A DNA stretch of 51,292 nt, from contig WELA01001856.1 of the NCBI GenBank assembly GCA_009602735.1, forward strand, positions 9,272 through 60,563, given 5' to 3'. Shown piece after piece: positions 14,384 to 39,600 of this stretch (position 1 is the first letter of the stretch; each line of letters opens with the position of its first letter). A program made the translations under genes and the position numbers. This stretch comes from Mesotaenium endlicherianum. Taxonomy: Eukaryota. The notes under the pieces were generated by a model, which saw only the letters and a program-made list of their open reading frames with translations, ran no database searches and was not told the DNA's origin.

Positions 14384-14441
14384 AGGAAAGCCGAGGTAGC
14401 GCCAAAGAAGAGAGAAAAAAACTTCCGTCGGAAGTGGCTAC

Positions 14442-14561: not shown

Positions 14562-14650
14562 CTCCTAGTACAAAAAGTATCCCAAAATATCTTTCCCAAA
14601 TATACTCCAACCACTTAAAAAAAAAAAAATCCTTGCAGAAACCGAGATCG

Positions 14651-14662
14651 GCTCCGGTACCA
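14651..14662 (-). promoter_or_regulatory. Primer-binding site of element C
   Basis: TGGTACCGGAGC on the minus strand next to the 5' LTR. Confidence 0.8.
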
Positions 14663-14663
14663 A

Positions 14664-15578
14664 TGTAACGTTTTTGCTTTTCAAGAGGATCTTTCCTCGG
14701 TATTCAAGGAATATTTAATTGAAGTGGAAAGAAAATCTGCATACTTGTGCAAATTGACGAATACTTGAAATAGCGGAATTGAAAACTAACGTAGAATGTG
14801 TGCTTGTGAGAGTTGCACTCACAATGACTCTTGCGAGTATTTATACTTGCAAATCGTGAGGCACTGGAGTGCTTCGAGTCACCACCTAGGGCACTAGTTC
14901 ATGTTCAACGAAAACGGTCGAAGGGGTACGACCCATTCGGCCGAATGCTCGAAACGCGCCGTTTGGCGGTCTGGAGACTTTTCGACGGTTTCCAAAAAAC
15001 TGTTTCACGCCAAACGGACGTTTTCAACGCAACTTTTGAAAAGTCGCGACCGTTTGCAGAGTCGCGTACAAATGCTTTCGTCATGAACCGGGAGTTATAA
15101 GTAACTACTTCGCCAATCGGTTAGCTGTGAACGTTTGAAACGACGAGTTGCGGGTTCGAATCCGCTCGGATGCAAAGTTGCTTTGCATATTATGTGTCGT
15201 TTGACTTTTACGACTGTTTCTTCGTATTAACGACTGGTCGAAAATGCGAAATCTATGACTGTGCATTATCCGAAACAATGACAATCATATCAACTTAATC
15301 AAGCCGAGATTTATTAACTTATCATCTCATAGTTAACCAAAGTAATTTTATGAATAATTACGTTGTACTTTTGCGAAGTAGTCGAGTTACATTACGACGC
15401 TTTTTGCAATAGTATCTCGGTCGTTTCGCCAATCGACCAGGAATTAATCGGCACACGCGTATGGCGAATAATTGAATATGATGCAATTATTTTTCAAATA
15501 ACATGATAAATAGTATAATGTACTTTAGGTAACCGGGACAACGTCCCAATTACGCCTAATATAGCTCGGATCGTTACA
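14664..15578 (-). repeat. 5' LTR of element C
   Basis: Direct repeat of 7988-8907. Contains the same tRNA-like module (B box 15153-15163). Confidence 0.95.
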
Positions 15579-15759
15579 AACGTGTTTTGACTCGGTTTGA
15601 CGTGTTTGCTTGACTTTGGGTCGATTTTGTTGCTCATTTGAGTTTGTGGATTGTTTCACATTCTCTACTGCTGTGGTACGATGCTTTTTCTCTCTCTCTT
15701 CGACCTGGATTTGAAACTCAAATCATGTCAAGGTTGGCATCGCATTTTTCTTGATAAGT

Positions 15760-18700
15760 GCCAATTTCTTATAAGCTATCGACAACACTTTTTGGTGCAC
15801 AGGAAATTCTCGGTGTTTGCTCGCGACCGCCAGAAATCCTTGTTCTCTTAGGCGTACCATATACAATTATATTTTGCTTAGAATATATTGGTATGCAAGT
15901 GTTGAGCTTTGTCGAGTTTACGAAACTTGAATGCATACATGCTTGTATGTTTTTGCACTTTCAGCTGAATGACCGTGATCTTGCACAGTATTACGAACAC
16001 TTGTCCATTTTAGGTTGATCAAATAGGTATTTTGCACCAATATATATTGCTGCATTCACTAAACGACCCAGTGGACTTGAACGTGTCGCTCAGTTTCCCA
16101 CTGGTTTAACGATGCCAGTGTAGGTGACACTTGGCTTAAGCAGACAAGGGCATTGTTGGACTATGGTCAGAGTACGTGCATTGTCCACAAGAGGGATAAG
16201 AAGACCACACTTCACTCTCTGAAGAAACCCAGGAGTATAAATAGTCCTTCAAAGACTCTTCTACTCTCTGTCAAGCAAGCTCGACGATTGGTTAAGCACG
16301 GTCAATAGGTTCTTTATGAACTCCCGCGCCAAGCTCCCACAGAGGTTTCTTCTTTGCTTTTTAAGGAAGAGTCAAAATTGGACGTCCCTGGTCATATTGC
16401 AACACTAACAGCTGAATTGTCTTCTCTTCAGCAGAAGTACAAGTCAGTGTCTCCCACCTGACAGAGGTACGGGATATACTATTCCTCTTCTTCCAGACGT
16501 CCAACCTACTTGGCGGCCAATTTACCGGCTCAATTCGATGGAGGTGAAAGAGATGAAGACCCAATTTGCCGACTTGCTGTCAAAAGGATGGATTAAGCCG
16601 AGCTCTTCTCTGATTGGGGCACCCATCCTCTTCGTCCAGAAGAAGATGGCAGCCTACGAATGTGCATTGATTATTGAGCGTTGAATAACATAACGGTCAA
16701 TAACCGCTATTTGTTACCTCGCATGATTTGTTTGATTCGCTGCAAGTAGTAGCACAGGTTTTCTCCTTGCTTGATCTAACTTAAGACTATCATCAAATTC
16801 AAATCACACAAGAGGGCGTTCCCAAGACAGCGTTTCGGACGCCTACTGGCTACCTCCATACAAAGTCCTAAGTTTTGGACTTACCAATGCACCAGCGACA
16901 TTCCAAAGCACAATGAACGATGTGTTTAGACCTTACTTGGGTAAGCTCGTCCCGGTTTACCTTGACGATATTGTGGTCTATTCAAAGACGGAGGTCGAGC
17001 ATTACAAGCACCAAGAGTTGGTGTTGCAGATCCTTTGTGAGCAACAGCTTTATGCCAAGCTCAAGAAACGTTCCTTCCATAAGAATGAACTTTTGTATCT
17101 TCGACATATCATTGGCTCGATAGGGATACGACCAAACCCGGCCAAAATTGCATGCATTGCGAACATGTTGGTCCCAATAGATGTACATACTGTCCGTTCA
17201 ATCTTGGGGTTTGCTAACTATTCTTGCAAGTTTATGCAAGGTTATTCAATGATGGCCGAGCCACTCACTCCTCTGACAAGGAACAATGTGCCCTTCATTT
17301 GGATTGAGATTACGCAATTTGCAATTGAGCCCATTTTGTATGCCCTCACTCATGCGTCGGTTCTAACATTGGCCGATCCAAACCAGCCTTACGAGGTAGT
17401 GGCGGATGTGTCTGGTGTTGAAATAGGGGCTGTACAGCCGCAGGCAGGTCAGCCTAATAGTTTTGAGAGTCGAAAGCTGACACCTGCCGAACAAAACTAC
17501 TCAACGACAGAGCAGGAGCTTCGGGCAGTTATACACGCTTTAAAGATCTGGCGTTGTTACTTGGAAGGCTGCAAAGCCCTGATGGTGGTTACGGACCACT
17601 GCTCAAATACCTTCTTCCAAGTCCAACTCACTTTACCAAGACGACAAACAAGATGGCCGGAGTTCCTCCAGCGATTCCACTTTACTTGGGCATATCGCCC
17701 TGCGTGTAACAATGTTGCGGACCTGCTAAGTCAAATCCCTCAAGAAGTTCTCTTGCTTCAGGGGCACTTGGCAGAGGAAGACAAACGAATCGGTCAGGCT
17801 TCAAGGGCGGCCACCCTTGATCTGCTGTACCACCCCCAATGCTTGCTGCCTATAAGCCTGGTGAAGCGGGCACACCCGTCTTGTGTAGCATAGCTACTTC
17901 TGACTCGCTTGACCTGCATCAACTGATTACAGAGGGCTACACCAATAACCTGTTTTTCCTATATCGCCTGGGTACTGGCTTGAACGGTGTAGCCGTAATG
18001 ATGGACAATATGGACAAAAGGAAAGAGTTTTTTGTGGCACAATGGGCGCATTATGGTTCCAGAAGGCCAAGTCAGACATGTTCTACTACAAGAAGCACAT
18101 GACTCTTCTTACTCAGGTCATCATGGTATAATTAAAACAACCCAGCAGTTGCACCGAGGGTACACATGGTCGTCCCTCATAGTTGATGTTGCCAAATATA
18201 TCACCAACTGTGCGACTTGTCAGAGGAACAAGCCGAGCAATGCGTTGCCCGCAAGGAAGCTACATCCTTTCAAACTTGCAGGTGTCCCTTGGGAAAGTAT
18301 TAGTCTCGACTTCATCGTGGACCTGCCGACCACCGACAAGTGCCACAATGGGGTGTCGACGACCATAGATCGCTTCACTAAGATGGTGCACTTTTTGGCC
18401 ACTAAACCATCATGTGATGCCAAAGAGACAGCGGGTCTCTTTGTCGATCATGTGTTCAAGCTACATTGGATGCCAAAGGAAATCATAAACCATGGTGACA
18501 GTAGATTTACGAGCCACTTCTGGCAGAATGTTTGCTCGTACTTCGGCACAAAGCTTAAGATATGCACAAGCTTTCATCCTCAGACGCATGGCCAAACTGA
18601 ACGTTTGAATCGCGTTCTTTAACAGTTCCTAAGGCATTATGTGAATCCTCGGCAAGACAATTGGGATACCGTCTTCTCCATTGTAGAGTTCGCTGTTAAG

Positions 18701-19460
18701 CTTACCAGGAATGTGTTGAGGAAACCTCGTTTTTCCTCAGCAATGGGCGTCATCCGCACACTCCGCTACACGCCATGGTCACCGATGCGGCGGGGAGTTG
18801 TCCATGGAATTTCCAAGCGTACGCCTCTTTCTCCACTCTCTTTAAGAGGTGCACAGACAGGCAAAGTTGGCCTTAGTCGCTACTCAAGACAGACAGAAAA
18901 ATTTTGCTGACACACAGAGGCAAGAGTTGAGTTTTGACGTCGGCAATAAAGTACTTTTGCAAACTAAAAATTTGCAACTCAAGCACCCTCAAAACAGCAA
19001 GCTTGTGCCTCGATGAGTAGGCCCTTTTCTCGTTATTGCACGGGTTGGTCCCGTTGCATACCGACTAGATTTGCCTAAATTCATGGGGCGGACACATTCT
19101 GTGTTCCATGTCAATCTACTCAAACTGTTTAGGTCTGACGGTTCATTATCAGACACAGCCGCCAGAGTTGGAACTCACCGACGATGATATAGCCTGGGAC
19201 GTGAAGGATGTCTTAGGACATCAATTTACCCGTCATAAGCCTCCACGAGTGGAGCTTTTGATCGAGTGGCTAGATTACGATTCCAATTGGACTTTGTACA
19301 AATCGCAGGACAAAATTGTACTTAATTGTAGTGATCTATAGTTCAGCAATACTGGTTACGATGGGCCAAAGCTTGACGGCTCTCTGGACAGAGAAAGTTG
19401 CTGTCTGCTCCTGATCCTAAACCAATAGATAAATGCAAAAGAGCCGCGGCTATATAATCG
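15760..19460 (+). pseudogene. pol: pol of element D (protease active site deleted; RT, RNase H, integrase, divergent chromodomain)
   Basis: VYLDDIVVYS; RNase H VADVSGVEIGAV; HHGIIKT...CATCQ; FHPQTHGQTER; WDVKDVLGH...IEWLDYDSNW. Many stops and frameshifts. Confidence 0.9.
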
Positions 19461-19584
19461 GTCTTTTCCACCATTGCCTGGATTGCAGAACTTGTGTTCG
19501 ACTCACTATGGGCAAGTCTCACACACATTAAAGCTTAAGAGACTACCTTAACGTGGACGTTAAAATCTTTTTAGGGGGAAGAAG

Positions 19585-20226
19585 TGTAGCGATCCAAGCC
19601 TTTTTGGCATATTCAGGATATTTTCCTAATTTCCTAAAATACGTTATACTTTTAAATCGATGAAAGATTGCATTTTGACAAATTTCTAGCCACACACGTG
19701 TGTCGACTAATTTCGGTCGATTGGCGAAGCGACCAGCAAATTTATTGATAACATACCTTCGATATTTTGCAAAAGAATACTGTAATTAATCATAAAGTTA
19801 CTGTGATTGATTGCAAACAATTAAGTTGATTAATTAAGGATGAATTTCCTCATTATGACTTTCATTATTTCAGACAATGACTGTCACGATGTTTCAACTT
19901 GATGACGATCGTTAAACCAAACGAAAATCCATATCGGTGACCCGAGGGAGACACCGGTGGGAATTAAACTCGCGACCTCCTGGCCGCGTCAGCACAATTC
20001 CACGACAATCGTAATTCAAACGGAAACCAATCAACAATGTTACTTTGTACTCGGAGGCATTCAAAACCTTGTCCTTTGTTTGAAACGTTTACACCTAACA
20101 ATAGGCCAAAGAGTTTTGGTGAACTCCCGGTTCATGTCAAACGTATAGGTACGCGACTAACCGAATAGTTGCGACTTTTTCGGAAATTCGCAAAAACACG
20201 AAAACGCCCTTTTGGCGCGAAACGGA
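19585..20226 (+). repeat. 3' LTR of element D (truncated)
   Basis: Starts TGTAGCGATCC after the PPT. Similar to the reverse complement of the C LTR until ~20226. Confidence 0.8.
19945..20115 (-). promoter_or_regulatory. Two degenerate tRNA-like modules in the D LTR
   Basis: Minus strand: TGGCCTATTGTTAGG...CGTTTCAAAC...AGGTTTTGAATGCCT (homologue of the C module), then GAGGTCGCGAGTTTAATTCCCAC (variable loop + T-arm-like). Confidence 0.45.
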
Positions 20227-20857
20227 TCAACAACTTGCCTGGTGCGCCTCAGGAGCGACACTGGAGCGCCACCTGGGGGTCCAGCACATGTCCCGCTAGT
20301 CCTTGCTGCCATCCCAACGCATGCCCCAGAGCACGCACTGACGTCGACCCTTGCACCAGCCCCAGATGCGCCCGGGACAATAGCCGCACCCGACGCCTTC
20401 GTCTGCTGCGCACAGACACGACCACTTGGCAGTAGTCCGGCGGCACACGCGGCCACGCGCGAGCACCCACTTGTGGCAGGTGCTGGCTGTGCAGCAGGCG
20501 CGCCCAAGCGCAACGAACTCGACCAGGGACGGCGTACAGAGGAGGCCCCACGCCTGCCTTGCTCCTTCCGCATCCTGGACCCCCCCCAACAACCCAGTCA
20601 CGCCAGCACCGTACGCACTCGCATCGCCAGTGATGACGGTGCAGCTCAGCGCCAAGGTGCTATAGTTCGCACTGCACCGCATGCTGGCGGTATCATTTGT
20701 TGAGCTCGGCGTGACGTTGGAGGCGACCCGGCAAGTCGCCCAGCTGATGCTACGCTCCCGGTGCCCGACCAAACGCCAATAGGCCGACAGCAGGAGCTTC
20801 CGCGGTGATGCTCTCAGCCCCCGCTCGACCCCCACACGAGCGCAGGTTGATCTCTAG

Positions 20858-21290
20858 CCCCAAAGTCGCGTTTCTGGACAACGCGCAAGGGATTGTGCTG
20901 GTCAACAAGCAGGCCCCTCAGCGCATTATGTTTGACACCGGCGCACAGCCAATTCTGATCAGTCACAGCTAGCTCCGGCAGCTGAGCCTCTTAGCAGCTG
21001 ACCTGGAGGATTCGCCCATGCGGATCCGACCTGCGACAAGAACATCCGCGTCCGTGACAGGGCGCACCCGGCTGGCGCTCGTCTTTACCATTTGCCCTGG
21101 GACCAAGGATGAGACGACAATCCATCGTCACGCGCTAGTGACGCGCTCTGAAACCTTTGACGTCCTCTTGGGGCAGGACGTACTTGTCCCCATTAGAGCC
21201 GCGGTGGACAACTGGACGGAGCAGGCACACTTTTGGTGCGACTAGCGCACGGGAGGCACGCGCACGGCCTCATTGCCATTGAACATTGTG
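20858..21290 (+). pseudogene. Aspartic protease domain of element F
   Basis: Manual translation RIMFDTGAQPILIS...FDVLLGQDVL (DTGA at 20934-20945), with in-frame stops. Confidence 0.85.
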
Positions 21291-23242
21291 GACCAGCGGC
21301 CCACAGCAGCAGCCCTCTACGGCTTCACGGCGCTCGGCGACAATGAGGACCGACCGGCGTCACCCAAATGCGCAAGGGCAGCCTAGAGGAGGACGACGTT
21401 ATTGTCGGGGTCGACTTGCTCCAGCCCCAGGACGAGGAGCCAGAGCTACCAAGCGCGGAGCTATACCTTACTCCACAGCAGCAGACGGAGCTGCTGGTAG
21501 CGCAAGCCCGCAAGTCTGTGCGCATCTATGCAGCACAGCTTGCCACGATGCCCCAGATTACCGCACCAGCGACCGCCGCCTCCGACATCGCTGCCACGGC
21601 AGTGGCCATAATCGCTAGGGCCCACAAGCTCCACGCCGTTGCGGCAGGCACGAGCCTACCGCCCGCACAAGAGCCTCCTCCGCTCGAGAGAGCTTGTTTG
21701 CCCAACGCGCGGTCCGACGTCCGCATGCAAGAGGAGGTACAAGTTGGACTGGCCATGCAACTCCAGATGGCGTCCCAACCACCTTCACCGTCGCTGCACA
21801 CTGACGACTCCGATCGCCGTACAACCACTTTAGAGGAGGAGGCCATGCGCCACGCGACCTACGACCCGGTGACAAACGAGGAGTTGTACAAGCGCACGCC
21901 AAACAAGCCCTACAAGGGACCGCGAGGGTCGCAGGCTCGGCCCGTCACTTCCGCTGCTTGCATCCGCCGCAGGCCCACAAGGCCCCCAGGCATCAGCACG
22001 CTGACAGGGCCCCCAGGCTTCAACAGGCCTGCCGGATCGCCCGGGTTTGAGCACTCGTCAGCAGCCGGTCTGTTGGGCTTCAGTCGATCAGCGTCCGCCC
22101 GGTCTGGGAAGGCCTATTGTTGTGCGGCAGGTCCCTGGTGCCGGCCCGGGCATGACTGCTCCACCAAGGCTAGCTGTCACAATCTCTCGCGCCTGCCGTA
22201 CAGAAGAGGCACCGACAATGCCCGCTCCGGCGCTCACGCCTGCACCGCCGCGACATCCGTCTCCTTCAGCACTGGCGCACAGGCAGCCCGCGCGATGGCC
22301 AGCGTACCTAGCACTGCGATGACCGCGGTGCCGGCTGTACGTTCCGTCCTTCGTCTCAAGCCAGGCCGCAAACTGCGCAGTTGGCGCCCAGCTGTTACCC
22401 CGCCGTAGTCCGGCACAACTTGCGCAGCGAGCGCAGCCTCACACCCCTGCACAGTCTGCGCAGAGAGCGCAGCCTCACGCCTCCGCCGCATCACGGCCAA
22501 CCAGTCACCCCTCCATAACGTGACACTTGCGGCCGGTATGCCACGCCGCCCTACCGCGACAATCGTGACCGAGCAGCCACTCCACAATACTGCAAGGTGA
22601 ATGACCGAGAGAACGGCCCATAGTCTACGACTTACGCCTCCCACGCTCCTTACAACTGGCGCTTGCCGCCTCCGCGCATTCACCTCGCCGGCAACGGACC
22701 TGGCGACTCACCTTCCTCCAAGGTGGCCCGCACCACCCGCGCATGCGACTCTCGGCCCGGTTGACCCTCAATAGTGGGCGACAACCTGGCACGCCGCCAC
22801 CAACGGCTTGACGACCACCTGCCGCTCCACTCTCAGCTCCATGCCCGAGTACAGCTGGCGCCTCGCCAGCCAGTGCGCGCACGCTCGTTTTCCTACCGCA
22901 CAGAGCCCGCTGGCAGTGACAATCCAGTGGACCTCCCTTTCCACCAGCGCCAGCAGGCCTCCCACGATCCTCACCTGTACCTGCCGCAGCGACCCATCTT
23001 GAACCAGCTTACGTACTCCGCCTCTCATACGCAGGATCGCGCTTGGTGGCAACTCACCTGTGTACGCATGGCCCAGTCCCTCTGGACTCCGGTACCCTTG
23101 CTCATCTTGCAGGACGCCCAGGATAGGTAGCGACAGTACCAAGCCCACGCGCGCGTCGCACAGCCCCAGCCACTGGCTAGGCCTCTTCCGCATCTTACGC
23201 GCAACTGCGCTGCCCGCGCAGTCGCTCCTCTCCGCATGGAAC

Positions 23243-23592
23243 CAAGGTTACGCCGTACGTTCATACGCTTAATACGCTAGATACACTAGTTCGCTAAATT
23301 CATTACAGCAAAAACTGCTTGATACGCTTAGTACGCATCACAATTTACGCCTTATTTTACGGCATGTGTACAAAATTAGTCCAATCGACTTTTTTGAGAA
23401 ACTTGAAGGCATATGACACTTATTAGAACGGTACACCATGCTTTGAATACAATCTCTTGACCTGCCCCCTCCAAACAAAAAAGTTTCATTTTTACACTTC
23501 AATTTTATCCAAATATGCTTAATGCGCTATACGCTATTTATACGCTGAATACGCCTAATTTTTTGGGCTCATACGCGTATGGCGTAACCTTG
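23243..23592. mobile_element. 350-bp MITE, probably hAT superfamily
   Basis: TIR CAAGGTTACGCC(G/A)TACG; 8-bp TSD CATGGAAC/CATGGAAT; AT-rich interior with many TACGC subterminal repeats. Removing it restores the F reading frame. Confidence 0.9.
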
Positions 23593-23593
23593 C

Positions 23594-24847
23594 ATGGAAT
23601 TGAACCAGCACAGCGTGGCCCGTATGTACCTGCCGACAGCAGCACCCGGTGATCCTGCTATGGGCCTACGCCTGCTGCCGACGCCAATCTACACGGACCA
23701 GCTGGATGAGGGGCCAGGCGGCATCGTTCTAGTGGAGTTGTTTGCCGGCATTGCCGCTCGGTTGCTGGCTACAATTCATGCTGGCATTCCCGTCCGGCGA
23801 TACGTCTACGTCGACCTTGACCCCGAGGCGCAGCAGGTTGCCCGACGTCAGATGGCGCTCTTTCAGGAGCGCTTCCCTGACATCTTCTTTGCACGCGCCT
23901 TCCACCACGCGCAAATTGACTGGCCCCTGGACATTCGCAAAATCACCAACGAGCACGTGACGCGCCCCAGCCCAGTGGACCTCGTCATCGCTGGTTGGGA
24001 GTGCCAGGGGTTCTCCATTGCAGGCCGCAGCGGTGCCCTCAGTGACCCGCGCACGGCACTCTTCTGGCACCTCCTTTGCGTCCTCAACCAGGTTGTGACG
24101 CGCCAGCCACCTCACTCCCTCGCGTGGATATTGAAGAATGTGGCAGTGCGTGACGACAAGCGAGCCAATGTGCGCGCCAACTTTGAGCTTTGCAGCAGCT
24201 ACCTTGGGCGCGAGGCCGTCATCGATGCCGCACAAATTGGGTCCTTCGCCCACCGCGTGCGGGCCTACATCACCAACCTCGCTATGCCAGGCACACTGGA
24301 GGCCCTGGCAGCCGCGCACCCACGCTATGACCGCAACGTCGACTCCATCCTCGACGTTGCTTGGCTGGCCCAGCGCATTACGGCCCAGCCCCATCCATCC
24401 CGGGCCCAGTGTGAGGTGCTTGGCGACGTCACCCGCGCTCTGCCGACATATGTCAGCCGCTATGACAGCGCGGCTCACATCGACGCGGCCCGCGGCGTGA
24501 TCATCCACCTTTACTCTGGCCTGTACGAGCGGCCGCGCGCCGTGGAGATGGAGCGCGCCATGGGCTTCCCGCCGCATTTGACCCAGGTGGATGGCATCAC
24601 CAAGGTCAACCGCGTTTGGCTCTTGCGGCAGGACATTGATGTCAACGTCTTGACCTGGATTCTTTTGCAGACGCAGGCCTTGACTCCCCTCTATCTGGAG
24701 GCCCGACATCTCGAGTTCCCTCGCCGCATAGACACGCCAGACAATAGCTCCTTTGAGGACAACAGCACTCGCCCTCCACCAAGTACCCGTTGGCGCTCCC
24801 CACGAGAAGGGCCTGCCCCCCAGACCCCTCCTCATCGCCCGTACTAG
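23594..24847 (+). pseudogene. C5-cytosine DNA methyltransferase domain within the F polyprotein
   Basis: Motif I VELFAGI; motif II YVDLD; motif IV DLVIAGWECQGFS (catalytic Cys); motif VI ILKNV (ENV with E>K); motif VIII HRVRAY; motif IX EMERAMGFP. Confidence 0.9.
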
Positions 24848-25139
24848 CTGCCACCCGCCTCCGACGCCGACTCTGCCCAGTGGGGGGGGGACGGCAGAGG
24901 GAGGAGGCACATCGGGCCAAGAATCCACATCGCTCCCTCTTTCTTTTTCCTCCTGCACGCCAGCCAGCCCCTACATGTCAGCTGGCAAGCCGCAGGACAG
25001 GTGCCAGCAGGAGCAGGTGCAGGGCATCCGCTCTCTGCCAGCAGGCAGGCGACGCCAGCAAGGGGGCCCGCAAGGGGGCAGAGCTCTGCAACACAGGAGG
25101 TGACAGGTGCAAGGCAGGCGCCACCTCCAGCAGCCCCTA

Positions 25140-26611
25140 CGTGGAAGCTGGGGGGGACCCTTGCTTCAGAGGAGGCAGCGCAGCTAACAGAGATGCTTGA
25201 TGCTCGGCGCAGTGCTTGCTTTGCCAGCGGCATGCACAACTTAGAGCGCTACACTGGCGACCCCATGAGATTGCGCCTCACGTCCAATGTGCCCATCTTC
25301 CAGTAACGATACCGCTACAGTCACTATGAGGACGGCTTTATCAGCACGCACACAGGCAAGCTGGAGGACAACCAGCTTGTTTGGGAGTCCTCCTCTACCT
25401 ACGCGGCCCCCACAATCATGCCGGCTAAGAAGGATGCCACAGACAACTGGTCTGAAAAGAGGATGTGCTGTGACTATTGTAAGCTGAACGAGGTCATTGA
25501 GCAGAACAGATATCCTATGCCTACCCTTGACAAGATTTTCGACGCCATTGGCACGTGCACATGGTTCTCAGTGTTGGACTTGAGATAGGGCTTCAACCAG
25601 ATACCTATTGCGCAGAAGGACCAGCATTAGACGGCGTTCTGGGGGGCACAGCGCCTCTACAAGTGGAGGGTGATGCCCTTCGGGCTGAAGATCGCTCTAG
25701 CTACCTTCCAGCGGGTCATGGATAAGGAGCTGGCGAGGCTATCCTTTACCTGATGCTACATTGATGACGTGCTTGTCTTCAGTGAGACGTTTGAGGAGCA
25801 CGTGGCGCACATTACCGCTGTCCTGGACCGCTTGGAGGCCGTTGGGCTCAAGTGCTATCCAAGGAAGTGCACCATTGGGACCCGAGAAGTGGAGTACCTT
25901 AAGCATCTCCTCTCCTCCAGCGGATTGGCGTCACAGCTGGCCAAGATCTCGGCCATCACAGGCATCTTGCCACCTACCAACATCTCGCAACTTAGGGCCT
26001 TCTTTGGGATTGCCAACTACCACCGTCGTTTTGTGGTTGGCTTCAGCGAGCTTGCTAAGCCACTCAACGATTTGCTGCGGAAGGGGGTGGCCTACTTATG
26101 GGGAGCAGAGCAGCAGGCGGCGTTCGATAAGCTCAAGAAGCTGCTAGTGAGCGTCCCAGTGCTGCGGCGGTCTGACCATACTAAGCCCTTCATCCTCCAC
26201 ACCAACTGGTCTTAGTCATGGCTGGGAGCATAGCTGGTTTAGGAGCCCGACGGCTGCGAGCACGTGGTGGTGTACGTTAGCCGCAGCAACAACCGCGCCG
26301 CGGCCAACTATGGCTCTTATGAGGGGGAGTGCCTGGCAGCGGTCTGGGCGATTGTGCACTTTGGGCACTACCTCTACGGCACCCGCTTCCGTCTCGTCAT
26401 CGACCATCAGCCGCTCAAGTGGCTTATGATGTCGGAGCGCCTTACAAACAAGTACGCGCGGTGGGCACTCATCCTGCAGGATTACACCTTTGACGTGCAC
26501 CACCGCCCAGGCCTGACCAACATGGACGCCGACGGCCTCAGCCGCAACCCGCTGCCTTCTTCCAGGGATCTGACAGTGGCCCGACACGATGAGGACAAGC
26601 CACTAGCCTAG
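25140..26611 (+). pseudogene. Reverse transcriptase and RNase H of element F
   Basis: KRMCCDY..LN, YPMP, VLDL, MPFGL, YIDD (25757-25768), YGSYEGECLAAVWA...IDHQPL. Same frame as the DNMT domain, with point stops. Confidence 0.92.
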
Positions 26612-27424
26612 CATGCGGCTGCCTTCTTGGCCCTCACAATGGACAGCGATGCGCGGCCCGCGGGGCTCACCGACCGCTACCTGGTGGTGGTCAACACGAG
26701 GCGTCTGGCGTTGGCAACAGCAGCAGAGCAGGACAGCTGGCAGAGCGAGTCCAAGGACGTGTGGGACGATGGCGCGTTGCTGCAATACGTCGCCGCTAAG
26801 GAGCTAGCGCCAGGCATGGACGCAAGGGAGCGTGACCGCGTCCTCAAGCGCAGTCGGGATTTTGTCTTCATGGAGGGTCAAGTAAGTCGTGTGATGGCCG
26901 ACGGCTCCGTCCTGGAGGTCCCTGATATTGCTATACGCAGCCAGCTGGTGCGCACTGTTCATGAGGCCCTTAGACACTTTGGTGTCAAGCGCAATCTCAG
27001 CCTGTTGCAGGCAGAGTACTGGTGGCTTGGCATGGCTAAGGTCATGGCCGACGTCGTCAGCAGCTGCACTCTCTGTGACCGTGTGAGCTCGAGCTTCACA
27101 ACGCTCACTGTTGCCCTCAGCCCCTGCCCATTTAGGGGATGTTCTATTGGTGGATGTTGAACTTGGCCGGGGAGTTGCCCAAGTCCCGCCGAGGTAACCT
27201 CTACATCTTGCTAATGATCAAGATCTTGTCCAAGTGGATCGAGCTCGTGCCCTTGCCCAGCAAGACCAGTGAGGGGATCGCTCAGGCGTTCCTTGATCAA
27301 GTCCCTAGCTGTAGTGATTTGAGTTATTATATACTATTTTCCATATATTGTTATGTTTTCAAATATATTTGGAGTAGTACTGTGTGGAGTCAAGTGTGAA
27401 TAGGCACTTTGGTAGCACAAGAAG

Positions 27425-28618
27425 ATGGCCGATCCTCAAGACCAACAGCAAGCTTTCGAAGGAAGCCCTTCCTCTCCAAGACACCCTCCTCCAGCACCTA
27501 TGGGAGAGCCCACTCAAGAAAATCTGCAACAACAAGAAGCACCACAAGGAGGAGCACACCCTCCTCCAGTGTCAATGGGAGAGCCTACTCAAGGAAATCT
27601 GCAACAACAAGAAGCACCACAAGGAGGACCACCGTCAAATCCCGTGTCAACCACTATAGCAAAGTTGACCCCACCACAAGGAGTTGCGCAAATGAGTGGG
27701 CAGCCTTCCTAGTGACCGTCCACAACCAAGTGGGCTTGGCCACCTATGAAGCAACCGTGCAAGCGTCAAGAGAAGCTATGGCTGCCATAGTTGCCCCTAT
27801 TGCGAGCAATGCTCAAAATCCAGCCCCTGCTGAAGCGCCTCCACAAGAGCCAACGAGAGCAAGGAAACTCATCAAGCCCGGCAAACCCGACACTTTCAAC
27901 CCCGAAAAAGGTGCCAACCTGAAGTTATGGCTCTACCAAGTGGAGACGTACCTCGCATTCCTTGAAGTACCCGAGGAGGACTACGTTCCCTTTGCCGTTA
28001 CCTTACTTAGAGGAGCAGCAACATCATGGTGGCGTAACTATCAAGCGGCTATAAATCAAGCTATGGCGCACCCCATGCTCGGCCAAGAGCCCCCACCATC
28101 ATATGCAAGATGGGCAGATTTTTGTGAGGCCCTCAAGAAGCAATTCATGCCCATAAATGCGGATAAGATTGCCCCAGGAAAGCTCCACCATCTCAAGCAA
28201 ACGACGTCCGTTCAAGAGTATCCATCCAGATTTCACGCCCTCACTCTTGAGATCCCCAACATGTCTCTCGAGGAGAAGATTGACCGTTACATCTTTGGCC
28301 TCAAACCCAAGGTGGCAAAGGAAGTGGAGTTACGCGACTTAACGGACTTCTCAAAGATCATTGAAGTGGCCCAAAAGGTGGATACCTTGGATTTCAAGCA
28401 CTCCGTGCCTTCATCTTCACGGGTACCGACGACGCGGGTGTACGCAGCCCCTTCCACATCCGAATCTGGACCCACACCCATGGAAATCGGAGTTATCAAA
28501 AGGGACCCCGCGGCTGCCCGGAAGAGTGGAAGACCCTCCAATGACACTTATGATGCAAGAAACCAGCAAGGAGTGAAAGCAAGACTCTCCCCGGCTGAAA
28601 AAGAAGCTCTCATGACGG
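27425..28618 (+). pseudogene. gag: gag of element A (frameshifted; runs into gap)
   Basis: KPDTF...WLYQVETY...LRGAATSWW...GLKPKV...GPTPMEIG. Confidence 0.88.
27482..27631. repeat. 75-bp coding tandem duplication in gag N-terminus of A
   Basis: HPPPAPMGEPTQENLQQQEAPQGGA / HPPPVSMGEPTQGNLQQQEAPQGGP. Confidence 0.9.
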
Positions 28619-28942
28619 NNNNNNNNNNNNNNNNNNNNNNNNNNNNNNNNNNNNNNNNNNNNNNNNNNNNNNNNNNNNNNNNNNNNNNNNNNNNNNNNNN
28701 NNNNNNNNNNNNNNNNNNNNNNNNNNNNNNNNNNNNNNNNNNNNNNNNNNNNNNNNNNNNNNNNNNNNNNNNNNNNNNNNNNNNNNNNNNNNNNNNNNNN
28801 NNNNNNNNNNNNNNNNNNNNNNNNNNNNNNNNNNNNNNNNNNNNNNNNNNNNNNNNNNNNNNNNNNNNNNNNNNNNNNNNNNNNNNNNNNNNNNNNNNNN
28901 NNNNNNNNNNNNNNNNNNNNNNNNNNNNNNNNNNNNNNNNNN
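28619..28942. other. Assembly gap (324 N)
   Basis: Run of N. Confidence 1.
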
Positions 28943-29009
28943 TGGGCCAACTTGTACAATTTTCTTCATCATTATGGAGTAGGCTAGCCAATAAGGTCAC
29001 ACCACCTAC

Positions 29010-29140
29010 GACCTTGCCTAGTCTACCTTACATGTGTAGCACCTGACTTGGCGCCTTTGACTAGTCCTCTTCACATGTGTGGCATCTGACTTGAAACTGT
29101 TGACTAGTTTGCTCCACATGTGTAAGACCTGACTTGACGC
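29010..29140. repeat. ~43-bp degenerate tandem repeat (x3) in the 3' UTR of A
   Basis: ACATGTGT....(C/T)CTGACTTG recurs three times at ~43-bp spacing. Confidence 0.75.
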
Positions 29141-29173
29141 GCCGAGACGTCGCTTTTTCCATCAGGGGGGTGA

Positions 29174-29672
29174 TGTAGTGATTTGAGCTATTTTATATTA
29201 GTTTGCATATATTTTAATATTTTCAAATATATTTGGAGTAGTATTGTGTGGAGTCAAGTGTGAATAGGTACTCTAGTAACTTGGTTCATGTCCTTTGAAC
29301 CTTCCAAGGCATTTTCGAAGTTAGAGGAAAGACCTAGAAGAACTCCATGTGGCAAAAGTCAAATGTGCCATTTTTAGGTCAAAAGGACATGTGTACATTA
29401 TTCTAGAAAGAGGTGGCAAGTTTTGGGATGTGTTGGGTGCCAACACATCAACGTACACTTTCCTAGAAATTACTTATGTAGCAAGTATATAAACAAGAGC
29501 TAGAACATAGAAAGACATTCCAGAATCACTCTTGTACTTGCCAAAATCCAGAAATATATCAACTCTCAAGAAGTCATCTCTCTTTGAAGAAGCTACCCCT
29601 TGTGTTCAAAGATCCTTGTCTTGAATAAAGTATTCTATTTTACTAAGTACTTTATCTATCTGTTTCACTACA
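29174..29672 (+). repeat. 3' LTR of element A (499 bp)
   Basis: TG...CA termini. Matches 27310-27405 and the reverse complement of 1-492. Confidence 0.95.
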
Positions 29673-30415
29673 TTAGCCGTTTTGGCGGCTGCGTTGAGGT
29701 GCTAACCAATCAGGGCAAGGAGTTTCAGGGCAGCTTTCAGAAGCTGCTGAAGCGCTCCATGATCGACCACCGCACCACCTCCCGCAATCACCCCCAGGCT
29801 GATGGCCTTGCAAAGCGCATGGTAGAGACCGTCAAGCTGGGGCTGCGTAAGTACTGCCAGAACCACAACAGCACCCATTGAGACAACGCACTCCCGTGGC
29901 TAGCTATGGGATACAAGTTCAGTCGCCAGGCCTCCTTAGCCTCCCATTCTCCCTACTTCCTCCTTTATGAACGCCAGCCAATCCTGCCAGCCGCAGCCAG
30001 GACCGTGGCGGAGAGTGTTCTGGACTTGGACATTCCCGACACATGGAGTGCTCTTATTGGGCTATGCGCACAGCTGTTCCAGGGCCTGATGCCCATGGCC
30101 ATGGACAACCTCAGTATCGCTCAGCATTGCAACACGCTCGGGTATGCCATGACTCGTGGAGGAGCCTACCGTCCCCGGGTAGTACAATTTTCCGCCGGTG
30201 ACTTCGTGTACCTGCGTTGCTGGACGAAGAACACCCTCGACACCAGCAGCTCGCCGATCATTCTGCGCGTCAAGCGTGCCTTGGCGTTAGGAGTATAGGA
30301 GCTAGAAGGCGCAGATGGCCGCCTTCACAAGAACCACACAAAGAACTGTGGTCCATGCCACCTTCCTTACCTTGATGTGCAGGTTTGTCCCCACGATGCG
30401 CGGCCGCCCAAAGAC

Positions 30416-30556
30416 TGGGCGTGCCAGATCTGCCACAGCCTTGGCAAGGAGGCCAAGGTGCTGCTCTGCGAGAGCTGCAACCTTGGCTTCCACATCGGCT
30501 GCCTCGACCCCACACTGGTGCGTGTCCCTGCTGGAGACTGGATTTGTAGGGACTGC
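30416..30556 (+). pseudogene. PHD finger at the C-terminus of F integrase
   Basis: CQIC...LLCESC..GFHIGC...VPAGDWICRDC is a C4HC3 pattern, in frame with the integrase C-terminus. Confidence 0.92.
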
Positions 30557-30645
30557 TTTGAGTCAGCTAGCAGTAGCATTATCAGCTCATCAGCCAGACG
30601 CTGAGAGCTAGGGGGGGAATTAAAACATTTGACATCTGACCTTCT

Positions 30646-31744
30646 TTTTTGGCCATAAGGTCGCAGGCATTTTTTCTTTCTCCATAACAAGTCTTGCTTG
30701 CCCCCTTGTGTGTTGCTTATATACACTAGACGTGTCTGACCTCATAATGCACGACAGCTGTCATGACTCATTAGGTCAGGACCGTCGGCCCTGACAAAAC
30801 ACACGTGCGTCGACCATCGACTTAGGAAAGCCGGCTTTGACCTTGCTTCACGTGTTTATATGTTGACCTTAGCTAGTATTCCAAATTGCTAAAGTGTAGA
30901 GCGTCGCGTCACCTTCTGAACGGCATCAGTTGCGCGCCCTTTGGTCAAGTATCGAGCAAGATATCCGCGATTTAGTCCGCGCCACCTACCGGCCCCTAGC
31001 GAATTTCACCAAAAGCCACTTTGTGACTCAATGTGCCCAAAGGTCACATTGTTGGCTCCTCGCAACTCCAAAGACCTCTAGCCATTAGCACATAAATCCG
31101 CGAGCTTGATAAAGTACACTTAGCATGCATAAGCATAGTATATGAGCACCATTTGAGCTACAACTTGGTGACTGCATCACTCATTTGTAGAGGAAACTTC
31201 CTCACATTTCAAATCTACTTTTGAGGCATTATCTAGGTAGCATTGGTCAAGGTAAGCTCCGCCAATGAGAGCCATGCATCCGCTTACTTGCACTATATTT
31301 GATTGGTATGTGTCGTGTTTAGCCAATAAGGGAGCTAGTACGTGCCTTGCCTCCTCTTTCGTGGACCTAAGAGAGCCTGCTAGTGTGACTGTGTGCATTG
31401 AATGCGCCGCCTTCAGCGCCGGTTTTTCACGGAGTATATGGCAATAGATGCCCTTAGCAAGAAATTTGTTTAGAAGTCAATTATGCCAATTGTAAGTCAC
31501 AAAGTTATTAATAAAGGTTACACTTTTATCTCTCGTGTTTTCAGGACCACTAAGTCTCTCTCTTGTGAAGAGCAAGCCCTCCTGGCTTCCAGTCACTAAA
31601 AGAACTTCACAAGTGGTGAGCCAAGTCACAGCTTTTTGGCCATAAAGCCGCAGGCATCTTTGCTTTCTCCATAGCAAGTCTTTCTTGCCCCCTTGTGTGT
31701 TGCTTATATTAGATTAGATGCGTCCGACCTCATAATGCACGACA
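30646..31744 (+). repeat. LTR-like unit 30759-31744 preceded by a copy of its own last ~110 bp (30646-30756)
   Basis: Termini TGTCATG...CACGACA. Direct repeat TTTTTGGCCATAAG...ATAATGCACGACA at 30646-30756 and 31633-31744. No TSD found. Confidence 0.6.
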
Positions 31745-32884: not shown

Positions 32885-35123
32885 TGCAACCCTGTTCCAT
32901 AGTACCCTTGGGAGGAGGTTGATATGTACTTCACCACATCGTTACGAGTTAGTGGTCAAGGGCACGATGCAGTATGGGTTGTGTCAAATAGACTCAGCAA
33001 AATGGCTCACTTCATTCCTATGAAGGAGACTTCTTCAACAGCAGATGTGGCACGGCTATATTTTTAATCATATCTTTGGACTACATGGATTGCGGAAGCT
33101 AATTGTTTCAAATGGGGATCCAAGATTTACTAGAAACAATTTTGACGATTATTGTTTACTTTGATGGGGACCAAGTTGAGTATGAGCACTTCCTATAATC
33201 CTCAGAGAGACGAGCAGAGTGAGAGACGCAATAGAACTTTGCAAACAGTGCTCAGGAGTTTATTGTGGAAAACCTTTCATAGTGGAACAAAAAGCTGCCA
33301 GTGTTAGAGTGTGTCTTGAACAACAGCATGCAAGGAACAACCAAGCAGTAAACATTCACTATGGTTTATAGGAGAGAAGTATATCATTCAGGGATCATCT
33401 TGCTCGAGAAGGCCAAGGAGACTTAGGTTCCTACTACACAAGCTTTATGGAGCAGATAGCAAAGACTTGGGACATGGCAAAGACTTGCATTCGAAAAGCA
33501 CCGGAAGAGCACGTCAAGCATGCTAACAAGCACAAGAGGGAAGTGACATTTTATGTGGGCAACAAAGTACTCTTCTCAACTGAGAATCTACCTTTCATAG
33601 GCAAGAGGAAACTGCGGGCACGACTTACAGGTCCATTTGTGTTGCTCAAGAAGGTGAATTTGGTGGCCTTTAAGTTGGAGCTTTCCTCAAACTGGGATTT
33701 ACGTGATGTGTTCCACGAGACTTACCTGCGGCCATACGTTGACCCAAATGAACGACATCCAAGACAACTACCTACACCGCCACCAATGGAAGAGATTGAT
33801 AATGTTTTGGAGTGTGAAGTGGAAGCAATTGTTAGCAATCGTCGAGTTAAGCTACGTTAACGATTTGTTCAAGAAAATCAGGTCAAGTGGAAAAGCTACC
33901 ATGCGGATGACGACACTTGGGAGCCAGAGACCAACTTGACTCATCGTAAGAATAAGTGAGGTGTTATCGACAGAACGCGTCGAGGACGTTGCGCCTAGAG
34001 AAGAGGGATAATGTCAGATCAAAGAATTGTAGAGTGCACTTTTGAGGTCTTTTTGAAGTAAAATTTGTCGAATTTGATCGAGTTTTGAAAAAATTAATAA
34101 TTTTTGAAGTTGTACTCATCTTAATGTCGATAGACAACTGTCCTTAATTCGCGAAGAGCGCGACCTTTGGCTTTACCAACAGTGTTGAGCTATATGGGCC
34201 CTTACAATGAATTTAAAACTTCACGTGATTTCGCTTGACGCGGAGTTGACGCGGAGTGCCGAAAAGGTCGAATTCCCTAGAAGTTTCTGTTTAACCTAGC
34301 GTGCCCAAGGTAGAATATTTCATAGATTTTTGTGCATGTATGTGGACGTCAAATCAACCCGACACGTCACATGAAGCTGATCTCTCACACTCATGGATAT
34401 TTTAGAAGGGAGGATTTGACAAACACTTGAAGTTTTTGTTGCAAAACAACCCTCCCTCCTAGAGAGGAGTTAGGTCAGAGAACTATAAATAGGCATAATT
34501 TCTTCATTTCTCATCAATTTTCAATTTTGTAAAATTTCTACGGATTTGTGTTGACATGGTCGTCCATCCTTTTTTATTTTTGAGCATTTTCTTGCCACCC
34601 AGAATGCATAGTAACTTTTCAAAGCATTTTCATTGATATGCCGCTGCCCTCTAGAGCATGATTGCAACTAGTTTGGTTCCTCTTGAGTTAGGACGCTTCC
34701 ACTAGGGCACCCTAGTTTTGAAATACTCGCGTATTGGCCTAGCTTGCCGTACCGATACTCCGTCTCGCATACGTATACGTAACAATTATTTTTTTGGGGA
34801 AGAATATTGGTCCTTTTTTTTTGTTTAACACCAAATAAATTTTTCTCTTTTACAGGCAAATGGTTCACATTTTTTTTTTTCTCGACCATCTATTCTTGAC
34901 GCGCTCGTCATTGTCCACCTAACGCGATCGACAAAACTTACAATTTTCAAACTTTCCAAAAGTTAAATTAGCAAACAACTTTCTACTAAGTTCACAAGCT
35001 TGGCGTATTTTGGCGTATTTTACGTACGATTTTGACACACCTGTATATACGTATCTGTACAGACCGTATCCGTACAGGCCGTATGTGTATGCTAAAACTA
35101 GGTAGGGCAGTCTGCCCCTTTCA
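32885..35123 (+). mobile_element. 3' remnant of chromovirus G (old relative of E): integrase-chromodomain, PPT, LTR 34012-35123
   Basis: KMAHFIPM, MEQIAKTWDMAKTC and ECEVEAIV resemble E pol. The LTR resembles the reverse complement of the E LTR, ending GGGCA.TCTGCCCCTTTCA. Confidence 0.85.
34711..35102. mobile_element. 392-bp MITE inserted in the G LTR
   Basis: Imperfect TIR CCTAGTTTT...ATAC; 8-bp TSD TAGGGCAC/TAGGGCAG; CGTA/TACG subterminal repeats. The LTR resumes after it. Confidence 0.8.
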
Positions 35124-36651: not shown

Positions 36652-39600
36652 TCAAGCATCTCCCCCAGCTTTGCCTTTAGTTGCGGCAACTACCTTTGCA
36701 CGCTGTGCCAACGCGTCTGCATTATGCTTCACTCTTGCAATGTGGCATGTAACTTGAGCAGCTCCTTCCATGCCTAACCGCTTTGTATGCTCGATAAGAA
36801 CCAGTAGAAAAGACTTCAGATCTCGTATGTGGATGTAAACAAGGTCAACTGCCTGACCCAAATAACGCATTGCTTGATACCGAGCAGATCCAACATTACA
36901 GGTAAGTGATCTAGCTGCCTCTTTGAAGCTGTGATCAACATGTGACACAAATTTGTTGCCATTGATGGCTTTCAGCACAGCCATATGGAAACTTGCAACT
37001 CTTGCCTTTATCTCCTTCAAGCCTGGAGTTGGCCGCTGCACAGGAGAAGCCTCCCTAGCTCTTTGCACCAAAGCATTAGCACCCTCTTCACCAAATTGTA
37101 CCTCCAGCTTGCGGCGAATCTCCTCTAGCTGCAGAGCTTGGGCCTCAGCTTTCTGGGTCGCCTCCTCAGTACGTGACCTGCAGTGGGATCATTAAGACTA
37201 AATCATGCATTAAGCAAAAGCACTTGCATACAAGTAGTCAGCAAATTGCTGTTGTATTTCTGCACCGTGAACATCTTGTAGCAGATGTTACGGAACAAGA
37301 CTTACTTGGCAGCAGCAAGTTGTTCCCTCTCAAGATCAATCTGTTGCCGCTCACTGCGTGCAGACTGCTGCTGCAGCTCAACTTCCATCTGCAACATGTA
37401 AGCAGCCCCCTGCTCCGCAGCAAGCCTTTTCTGCGAGGACAACAGCTGTTGGGCTGTTTCCTCAACTTGAGCTTGTCTGCGCACCAATTCCTCCTTCTCT
37501 TTTCCCAATGCCTCCTGATACCCACATGAAAACCCCCTTCTCTTCTCTTCAATAAGAGGTTTCCACAAAATGCAAAAAGGGGGAAGACCCTTTTGTCAGG
37601 TCACATAACACTCCGCAATTTGACATACAACATGCTACTGCTCAACCAGAATAATACATGGAGAAAGCTTGTGTCATACACAGACCTTGAGATATGACCC
37701 CATGTGCTCCTCCCATTTTTCCCTCTCCTGCTGAAGCTCCAGCACAAGAGAAGTCCGGAAAGCCTCAGATTCCTTGAGTAGCTCTTCAGCTCCTTGCCTA
37801 TGCATTCTCTCTATTCCTAGCTCTTGCTCTGCTCTCTGCTCAGCAGCTTCAGCAGCAGCAGCAGCTTCAACTGCAGCCTCAGCAATTTTTTCTGCATCAA
37901 GGCGTGCCAGCTCCTCGGACACAATATCACCGGCTTCACCATAAGCAAGAGCGATGGCAGCCTGGCCATGGGTCACCGGTTTGCTTGGCTCAAATCTCCT
38001 TGTGTAACCTGACAACCCCACAGTCCCCAGGCTTTCAGGTATTTCAGCATAACTGCAACAAATGTATGCATGTACATTCATAATCTACAACAAGGTCAAG
38101 GTCAGCAACGTCAGTGAACCTACATGGAGAAGGAATGGACTGGCCAAGAACAGTTACCAAAAGCAGACGATATCATGCTACCATCACCCTGAAGGATGTC
38201 AAAGGCCACAGCTGGTAGAGCATCAATGTCAATGCGGTCCACATCTATCAGCCCTGACACCGCCCTCAAGATCTGCACACCACCCAGTTCCCTCTTCATA
38301 CTCAATTCACTCGGCCGTAAAAATTTACCAGGTCACCAGGTCCACAATGTGAAGCTTGTGGCCAAATTGTTCAACCAGGCCATGAATGCGCGGAACTGAC
38401 TCTGAAGGAGACAACTCAATCATCACTCGCTAGTAAATGTACCCAGAAAACTCACGCTGGCTTGCTATTGAGATGCTCCACTGCATATGGCTTGGTCATG
38501 GCGATAACCAACAAATGATGACGCTCTGACTTCACCACCCAAAGTGCAGACAGCATACCTTCCTACACGTCTCAATGCGAGTGCTTACTTGGGTGCAACC
38601 ATTACTTGCTCCATCCAACCTAGAAGTCATGAAAACATAGGATGTGCAAAGATGAAGCAGGGGATACCTGTTTATCAGGAGCAGGAAGTGTCCTTTGTTC
38701 CAGAGCTATTTTCCAACTGATCAAATCCTGCCTTCTCACAGGGCTGCTCCCACAGCACAGATGTTTAACTTAAAACATAAACATTCACCAACCAAATATA
38801 CAAGAACCCATCAAAAGACCACAAGTACAACGAGTACAACGTCGATTCTATTCTTCAACCACAATCGGGCACCTATGTCGAATCTTTGAAACCCCACAGT
38901 CCTTTAAACCTGCAGCTGCAAGTGCCAAGCGAGAGAAGTACCTGTCTGGAAGGAAACGATCAGATAGAGCACTACTAACACCGCTGCCAGCCTGGCCATC
39001 GTTCTCATTGTTTATGACATCCATGTGCGACAGGCGGCTCTTAATCAGACCAGCCTCAGCAAGCCCTACACCGCATAACAGGTACGTCACATTTATTTCA
39101 GAATTATTAAGAAATGCACCAGCCAATCTATGAAGGGCCGCATATCAATCAATAGGATAAGAAACGTCCCAACTTTGCAGAAATTTAGCAGACCCTGGAC
39201 TTGAATGGTCACAGCCTTCTCCGCTGCCACCAAAAACATTGACTGACTTCTTGATTAAATTATTGGCAGCTGACCTTGAATATATGGAAAATCGGGGTCT
39301 TCGGCTGAAACATCCTGAAATGCAAGCTCTGTCACATTCTCGATATACATAGCAGGAAAAACCTTCCGAGCTGAGCTACTGCACATGCCACAAATGGAAT
39401 GCATCAATGAGGACCACCAATGACCCACAACAAACAAAACTCTCAAGCCAAATGCCCAGCCTGCCCTGCCACCACCTAACACTGCAACAAAAAAAGAAGA
39501 AAAGTTCCACAAGAGTTTGACACGCAAACAACATGCAAAAGGGAATGTCATCCAGCTCGTTTACAACATAGCCACCTGCAGTCACCCCACTACCCTCTCT

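Follow-up and report, generated by a model that had tools for sequence, protein, structure and literature searches.

A decayed Ty3/Gypsy retrotransposon with a DNMT3-like cytosine methyltransferase and a PHD finger in the streptophyte Mesotaenium endlicherianum

The stretch of DNA analysed here, hereafter the window, comprises 51,292 nucleotides of the Mesotaenium endlicherianum genome (assembly GCA_009602735.1, contig WELA01001856.1, positions 9,272 to 60,563 of the forward strand), and all coordinates count from its first letter. It holds a decayed copy of a Ty3/Gypsy retrotransposon, the window element, whose parts follow the order protease (PR), spacer, C5 cytosine DNA methyltransferase (DNMT), reverse transcriptase (RT), RNase H, integrase (IN), plant homeodomain (PHD) finger and polypurine tract (PPT). 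This order, proposed in an initial annotation made from the sequence alone, was confirmed in this streptophyte genome by Pfam matches and six-frame reading, which also recovered the Ty3/Gypsy succession PR-RT-RNase H-IN. The features of the element are the following; LTR denotes a long terminal repeat, TSD a target site duplication, MITE a miniature inverted-repeat transposable element and ORF an open reading frame.

20523..20882, plus strand: remnant of the Gag/PR boundary; tblastn matches of type-A relatives (defined below) begin at 20523-20835
20883..21218, plus strand: aspartyl protease with DTG motif (Pfam RVP_2, E 6e-6)
21219..23242, plus strand: long GC-rich spacer with frame changes, common to other copies in the same genome
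23243..23592, no strand assigned: 350-bp MITE bounded by terminal inverted repeats; the two copies of its 8-bp TSD agree at 7 of 8 positions
23714..24673, plus strand: DNMT3-like C5 cytosine methyltransferase, motifs I-X unpermuted, open frame
24845..24853, plus strand: candidate programmed stop, an in-frame TAG in the DNMT-RT linker whose 3' hexamer agrees with CARYYA at 5 of 6 positions
25397..25915, plus strand: reverse transcriptase with YIDD motif and stops (Pfam RVT_1, 25451-25900, E 4e-27)
26174..26560, plus strand: RNase H with stops (Pfam RT_RNaseH, E 5e-28)
26930..27309, plus strand: integrase zinc motif and start of the core (Pfam Integrase_H2C2, 26930-27091, E 2e-11)
27310..29672, plus strand: nested high-copy LTR retrotransposon, 5-bp TSD matching at 4 of 5 positions
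29675..30400, plus strand: remainder of the integrase, second Asp and Glu of the DDE triad replaced
30422..30556, plus strand: PHD finger (Pfam PHD, E 2.5e-10), 8 of 8 zinc ligands kept; its ORF stops at TGA 30602
30606..30617, plus strand: polypurine tract, whose motif recurs in related loci
30646..30756, plus strand: repeat B1, 89% identical to B2 over 112 columns
30750..30765, no strand assigned: palindromic B/A junction, core GACA-GC-TGTC, conserved family-wide
30759..31632, plus strand: repeat A2, likely the promoter-bearing part of the LTR, with a conserved 14-mer at 31593
31633..31744, plus strand: repeat B2, the right end of the element

The element extends to 31744 and not, as first thought, to 30620. 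On the left, the window contains neither the 5' portion of gag nor repeat A1, A2 having no second match within it, and the TSD of this copy lies beyond the window or is lost; A1 is missing from this copy because an LTR of another family, ending at approximately 20225 by LTR similarity, abuts the left side of the element. From the DNMT through the IN zinc motif the element reads in one frame with nine stops. A single frame had been claimed by the initial annotation, which placed the zinc motif at 26627 instead of 26930 and took point stops to be the only breaks, but the integrase core also carries a frameshift near 27130 and the insertion at 27310-29672. The first catalytic Asp is replaced as well, leaving none of the three DDE residues present in relatives. 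The nested element, which consists of a 5' LTR cut to 105 bp, gag, a gap of 324 N and a 3' LTR of about 500 bp, splits the integrase core and is bypassed in contigs joining 27304 to 29673-29675. The MITE, which we take to be hAT-like from the length of its TSD, is bypassed in three DNA contigs joining 23202 to 23604, the intervening letters not being known. Removing it with its duplication (350 + 8 = 358 nt) restores the frame of segment 22774-23242, as had been claimed, but that segment holds a stop of its own at 23128. Stops also affect PR, one in frame inside the domain at 20970 and another just past it at 21243. PR lies in a different frame from the DNMT, with at least two frame changes between them in the window, and the continuity of PR with DNMT is therefore demonstrated only in relatives.

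The spacer between PR and DNMT measures 2,156 nt without the MITE, compared with a median of 445 nt in 43 related loci, and this roughly fivefold excess indicates that the long spacer is peculiar to the subfamily of the window element. Neither of the two spacer ORFs matches Pfam, and no tandem array of note occurs in the spacer.

The methyltransferase belongs to the DNMT3 type by sequence, profile and fold, which bears out its first identification as a C5 enzyme. Its open frame of 419 codons is intronless and contains motifs I to X in order; within the stop-free frame 23588-24844, the Pfam DNA_methylase match scores 32 bits against a cutoff of 22 (E 1.2e-7). Among sequences of solved structures the top match is DNMT3A (E 4e-10), and profile scores rank DNMT3A (76 bits) above HhaI (38) and DRM (35). 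The predicted fold (pLDDT 86.2, pTM 0.88) retrieves DNMT3A as the best Foldseek match (E 5e-19, TM 0.70). Identity as a plant DRM was rejected, given the unpermuted motif order and the low DRM profile score.

The window copy is dead, as the initial annotation had stated: besides the stops, the frameshift, the insertions and the loss of DDE, its DNMT retains the catalytic Cys but has Lys for the motif-VI Glu and lacks glycines that are conserved in motifs I and X; the open frame therefore encodes no working enzyme. In the alignment of full-length relatives, by comparison, both the catalytic Cys and the motif-VI Glu are present in 147 of 147 sequences. The DNMT dN/dS was 0.10-0.17 in eight between-subfamily pairs of related loci, two further pairs being saturated; five within-family pairs of decayed near-copies gave 0.35-0.63 and are uninformative. 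These estimates cover related loci. The window DNMT has no close relative, its best identity being 38%. In the relatives the DNMT is under purifying selection, judging from the substitution ratios, and its catalytic residues are conserved family-wide.

A homologue scan returned 376 clusters at E up to 1e-10, of which the best 150 were listed; with those of another search they make up 157 homologues. Gypsy domains accompany the DNMT in 115 of these 157 and the DNMT stands alone in 42. Two architectures were distinguished. In type A, with 25 of the 157 listed homologues, the DNMT follows PR or precedes RT (P0137, with the DNMT before PR, is counted here); in type B, with 90, it lies between RNase H and IN, in the order RT-RNase H-DNMT-IN-PHD. 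Twenty proteins were looked up: Klebsormidium nitens, Closterium and Mesostigma contribute type-A members, and Scenedesmus contributes type-B members, including proteins annotated as 'pol'. The K. nitens protein GAQ93235.1 has the PR-DNMT order of the window element at 32% identity. Related metagenome loci (n = 80) divide into 55 of type A, 12 of type B (L065, L067, L072, L074-L078, L089, L091, L101 and L103; the proteins P0068 and P0177 are further examples of this type) and 13 unclassified, and the complete order PR-DNMT-RT-RNase H-IN-PHD occurs in 10 of the 80. Separately, one type-B polyprotein (P0012) is filed in NCBI under a bacterial metagenome-assembled genome, likely through algal contamination.

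That the DNMT could be an adjacent gene, a passenger picked up by the element or an artefact of chimeric assembly is refuted by this census, and we now regard it as extremely improbable. The insertions, the N gap and the unusually long spacer of the window copy could have encouraged it, but the DNMT stands before RT in 55 of the 80 loci, and the same order recurs in named algal proteins. The DNMT has no introns, and no flanking repeats, TSD or termini of its own were found around it in the window copy, while its counterparts in relatives evolve under purifying selection. Summed depth of DNA contigs from one sequencing run, possibly of the source sample, a quantity not equal to copy number, reaches 4,400-5,100 on the DNMT, on a par with 3,600 on PR, and 457-1768 on the spacer, compared with 63-74 for exact contigs; the values on DNMT and PR indicate that the family is multi-copy and that the DNMT travels with it.

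Quick trees, in which 59 of 89 type-B rows were left out and host DNMT3 was not included, recovered type B as a supported clade with the DNMT (support 98) and with RT (support 98), each clade containing a single type-A row, L087 in the former and P0149 in the latter. The window RT branches first within a type-A group (support 94) and falls outside the three DNMT-less Gypsy RTs of the window. The window DNMT, on a long and unresolved branch, is placed among the type-A rows that include Klebsormidium, Closterium and Mesostigma and away from phage DNMTs; IMG/VR gave only distant matches (27 loci, 24-52% identity over short N-terminal stretches), six of which served as the outgroup. A single capture of the DNMT followed by relocation would fit these trees, with two captures as the alternative. 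P0137 joins a weak Dam match, DNMT, PR, RT, RNase H, IN and SH3 in one polyprotein, its RT lying outside the clade and its DNMT near the Klebsormidium enzyme; it is possibly an EpiLTR-like element (a class introduced below) with a DNMT3-type enzyme.

Comparison with the relatives also bears on expression. In the window element the DNMT shares its frame with RT and RNase H but is separated from them by the stop at 24845. Two loci (L036 and L037) maintain a single frame from PR to PHD with exactly one stop each, located in the DNMT-RT linker. Among the seven undecayed type-A loci, in which DNMT and RT are intact, six have a single linker stop followed by CAR, in five of them by CARYYA, and only L087 has none; overall, stop plus CAR was found in the linker of 37 of 42 type-A loci. 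The background frequency among stops is 0.2% for CARYYA and 3% for CAR. In type B, CARYYA occurs in 0 of 11 linkers, and the DNMT-IN linker lacks an in-frame stop in 9 of 11 loci. UAG-CARYYA is the readthrough signal of tobacco mosaic virus (PMC4132726, PMC2754532). Stops followed by CARYYA or CAACCC were recorded in the linkers of L030, L035, L036, L037, L082, L107, L079 and the L028 family, and the K. nitens proteins P0028 and P0070/P0174 terminate nine residues past the DNMT. Given the single linker stop of six out of seven undecayed loci, the Gag-PR frame likely closes with the DNMT in part of the clade, and in the window the TAG at 24845 may itself be programmed. The initial claim that the methyltransferase is part of Pol was thus right in assigning it to the element and in dismissing a neighbouring gene, but its place within the polyprotein is probably the end of Gag-PR.

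RNA reads, taken from 6-13% of each of three runs, were 99% alike to the window in 12 of 357, 28 of 779 and 83 of 1,392 cases. Many depart from the window sequence at 31634, where transcripts of other copies would be expected to pass from A into their internal region. Reads of a diverged copy partly cover the spacer at 21585-22418 in all three runs, with none on the DNMT.

The termini may bear on the route of integration. After the PPT the window element ends in B1-A2-B2, with a junction identical to that of its relatives, and two related loci (L066 and L095) display the full A-coding-B-A-B layout. Where both ends could be located (five loci), a perfect 4-bp TSD was found in four and a 3/4 match in one. 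The B/A junction is palindromic, and in type-A relatives its two halves correspond to the ends of the element. The 16-mer junction of the window is matched within 3 mismatches in 10 of the 80 loci (L028, L036, L037, L053, L066, L067, L072, L074, L095 and L106), exactly in L028 and in the type-B locus L072; across 100 shuffles of the window no match occurred within 1 mismatch. Unlike this junction, the A/B joint varies between loci. In addition, the sequence joined upstream of the start of B differs in three independent truncated forms (L052/L081, L059 and L051/L056), as though B began at a free end of the cDNA. The variable joint and the truncated forms fit a linear cDNA of the form B-A-internal-B-A whose ends are joined and whose palindrome is then cut. 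HIV-1 integrase cleaves the palindrome of a circle junction in vitro (PMC1905944). This pattern suggests integration from end-joined cDNA cut internally, and an internal palindromic site may thus be what a Gypsy integrase normally uses.

Other terminal configurations were also recorded. Four loci (L039, L044, L055 and L094) end after a single B, L055 with a 4-bp TSD; such A-internal-B copies may derive from B1/B2 recombination or from insertion of a one-LTR circle. L077, L078 and L087 also have terminal repeats, but these do not count as evidence of circles, since assemblers create them from repetitive sequence. Half of the relatives compared (5 of 10) clearly have a complement to the post-A motif that would allow self-priming (15-15.5 of 17); in the window it reaches 11.5 of 18, the same as the shuffled median.

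These elements of anatomy can be assembled into a mechanism, towards which we lean slightly: the DNMT would be packaged in the particle and would methylate newly made cDNA of its own element, probably at CG sites, ahead of integration. The first translation product would be Gag-PR-DNMT, RT-RNase H-IN-PHD would be produced by readthrough of the leaky stop, and the DNMT, freed by the protease, would be present at Gag-like amounts. The cDNA ends would then be joined, and the integrase would cut the internal palindrome and insert A-internal-B-A-B with a 4-bp TSD. Methylation in advance could let long-lived free element DNA pass as host DNA. The PHD finger would work separately, steering the integrase to H3 tails unmethylated at K4 from the slot in which chromoviruses have a chromodomain. 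The varying position of the DNMT, before RT or before IN, fits an action on cDNA shared within the particle. A DNMT3 domain from another retrotransposon, SymbioDIRS-Dnmt3, carries out de novo CG methylation in yeast (PMC5890265).

Several observations weigh against packaging and methylation of the cDNA as formulated here. The extra CpG loss that self-methylation might leave as a trace is not seen in the window element, in which the observed/expected CpG ratio is 0.96 in the DNMT and 0.63-0.72 in RT-IN, compared with 0.43-0.84 in the four DNMT-less elements of the window. Of the 37 loci with stop plus CAR, many are near-copies of one family. The 5/6 context of the stop at 24845 is equalled by 1 of 13 other window stops, so that the case for its being programmed comes from relatives. 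In Closterium P0007 and in P0022/P0165/P0170 the DNMT reads into RT without a stop, and readthrough is therefore not universal. No RNA reads fell on 23670-25337 in the sampled 6-13% of the three runs. An alternative cut at the second junction, which a circle with two equal junctions should sometimes undergo, was found in 0 of 11 distinct left ends. Furthermore, KnitGypsy-Dnmt3 of Klebsormidium produced no methylation in yeast, a result termed inconclusive by its authors (PMC5890265).

It is also conceivable, though we judge it unlikely, that the DNMT has a trans-acting or braking role, silencing its own or rival elements, or binding DNA or RNA with no need to methylate cDNA, and that it is kept because the host is harmed less. 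Expression at Gag level would yield far more enzyme than one cDNA requires, which agrees with this proposal, as do the CpG content of the window element and the negative yeast assay, for which the authors name this very option (PMC5890265). The invariance of the catalytic residues argues against a purely binding role, however, and the RNA reads give no sign of expression outside the particle.

A further proposal concerns the PHD finger, which sits on the integrase tail, past the likely readthrough stop in the type-A architecture. Its nearest solved counterparts include fingers of the KMT2C/D, CHD4, KAT6A, KDM5, BHC80, BAZ2, AIRE and UHRF1 types; many fingers of the KDM5, BHC80, AIRE, BAZ2 and UHRF1 types read unmodified H3 tails, and the finger is accordingly a predicted histone reader. 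Writer and reader could then be coupled, DNMT and PHD-integrase acting jointly at the insertion site to mark the new copy and its flanks, in analogy with the ADD domain of DNMT3A, which links H3K4me0 reading to de novo methylation. The kinship with unmodified-H3 readers is in line with this idea, as is type B, in which the DNMT lies directly N-terminal to the integrase-PHD in 90 of the 157 listed proteins, across a linker that is stop-free in 9 of 11 loci. In type A, however, the DNMT and the PHD lie about 1,900 codons apart with a likely leaky stop between them, a PHD finger also occurs in a Gypsy element with no listed DNMT (PMC9940879), and the 'writer' of the window copy has lost a catalytic residue. 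Joint action seems improbable to us, and separate roles for a packaged DNMT and an integrase-bound PHD remain our preferred reading.

A broader scenario, which we offer tentatively and consider doubtful as a whole, unites all of these elements in one pan-green-plant Gypsy clade. The DNMT3 would have been captured once before the chlorophyte/streptophyte split and would since have shifted between two places, one flanked by RNase H and IN and the other at the leaky-stopped end of Gag-PR; the DDE integrase would routinely insert circular cDNA via the conserved palindrome, and the abundant packaged DNMT would methylate the free DNA and possibly select which of the two identical palindromes is cut.

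The remainder of the window is occupied mostly by other repeats. Decayed Gypsy elements without a DNMT lie at 730-6700, 7988-15578, 15700-20225, 32900-34700 and 43800-51292; some have chromodomain-like ends, judged by eye, and the LTRs of the element at 7988-15578 diverge by about 0.07 substitutions per site. The family nested in the integrase has a further LTR at the start of the window (1-498, minus strand); its summed contig depth is very high, reaching 850,000, and it has RNA reads in either orientation. The sole host gene recognised is a multi-exon plastid SLH-domain gene (37500-41981, minus strand), whose exons are about equally near to Sphagnum, Diphasiastrum and Papaver homologues (50-58% summed identity), which marks the host as a streptophyte. 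An ORF at 36652-37188 (minus strand) appears by eye to encode an RNase H-like protein, and the window contains no tRNA genes.

Transposons are normally targets of methylation, and a lineage that keeps its own de novo methyltransferase under selection in hosts from across the green plants implies that the mark can serve the parasite. The window element is a relative of the published KnitGypsy-Dnmt3 of K. nitens, and the kind itself is not new; the Klebsormidium precedent cited at the outset is therefore sound. KnitGypsy-Dnmt3 has a DNMT in Pol, DIRS-like repeats, a Ka/Ks below 0.2 and an enzyme that gave no activity in yeast (de Mendoza et al. 2018, PMC5890265). Both elements have an intronless, unpermuted DNMT3-like domain in a Gypsy polyprotein, A-coding-B-A-B repeats and, in the case of the window element among its relatives, purifying selection on the DNMT; the window element differs in its DNMT on a long branch, its roughly fivefold spacer, its likely readthrough stop and its host. 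The term 'PHD' is absent from the searched text and supplements of PMC5890265, although its Fig. 4c may show such a finger, and a readthrough stop or junction of the window kind may likewise appear in its figures or main supplement. In the searched literature, terms for Gypsy-DNMT3 elements appeared only in that paper and in bioRxiv 10.64898/2026.05.21.726589, which mentions streptophyte Gypsy-DNMT3 together with EpiLTRs; the searched portions of PMC11982613 and PMC10952607 contain nothing on them, and such elements are stated to be absent from land plants such as tracheophytes (PMC6338049). Type-B order, the DNMT-RT readthrough stop and the palindromic junction were not found described in the literature searched by title and start of abstract, outside which lay most subscription papers, theses and Repbase. 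Elements of this layout have no two equal LTRs, so finders of LTR pairs would tend to miss them, judging from their criteria (PMC6317226).

Retrotransposon-borne C5 DNMTs are also known from Symbiodinium, as SymbioDIRS-Dnmt3 and SymbioLINE-Dnmt (PMC5890265). SymbioDIRS shares with the window element a DNMT3 and the same repeat layout, and its enzyme, as noted, methylates CG in yeast; the Symbiodinium elements rely on a tyrosine recombinase or a LINE endonuclease, in contrast to the DDE integrase here, and represent an independent capture. DIRS identity was rejected on the basis of the H2C2 and rve integrase of the window element and its relatives and the 4-bp TSDs of the relatives. Gypsy-7a_cRei of Chlamydomonas is also a green-lineage Gypsy with a PHD finger, for which an influence on targeting has been proposed, but its domain list includes no DNMT (PMC9940879). 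EpiLTRs of Cymbomonas and Euglena likewise unite a DNA methyltransferase and a chromatin reader in an LTR element, and through them the idea of a self-contained 'epigenetic toolkit' is already in print (bioRxiv 10.64898/2026.05.21.726589); they combine DAM, a DNMT4-sister enzyme and a chromodomain, unlike the window element with its DNMT3-like enzyme and PHD finger and no DAM. Identity as a chromovirus or EpiLTR was rejected for the same reasons, a PHD finger in place of the chromodomain and no Dam match in Pfam. Set beside these systems, the main interest lies in three features of the relatives, namely the stop with its readthrough context, the arrangement found in chlorophytes and the palindrome at which integration would occur. 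This comparative anatomy makes testable the stoichiometry (a leaky stop would place the enzyme at Gag level), the substrate (end-joined cDNA) and the possible use of an internal palindrome by the integrase.

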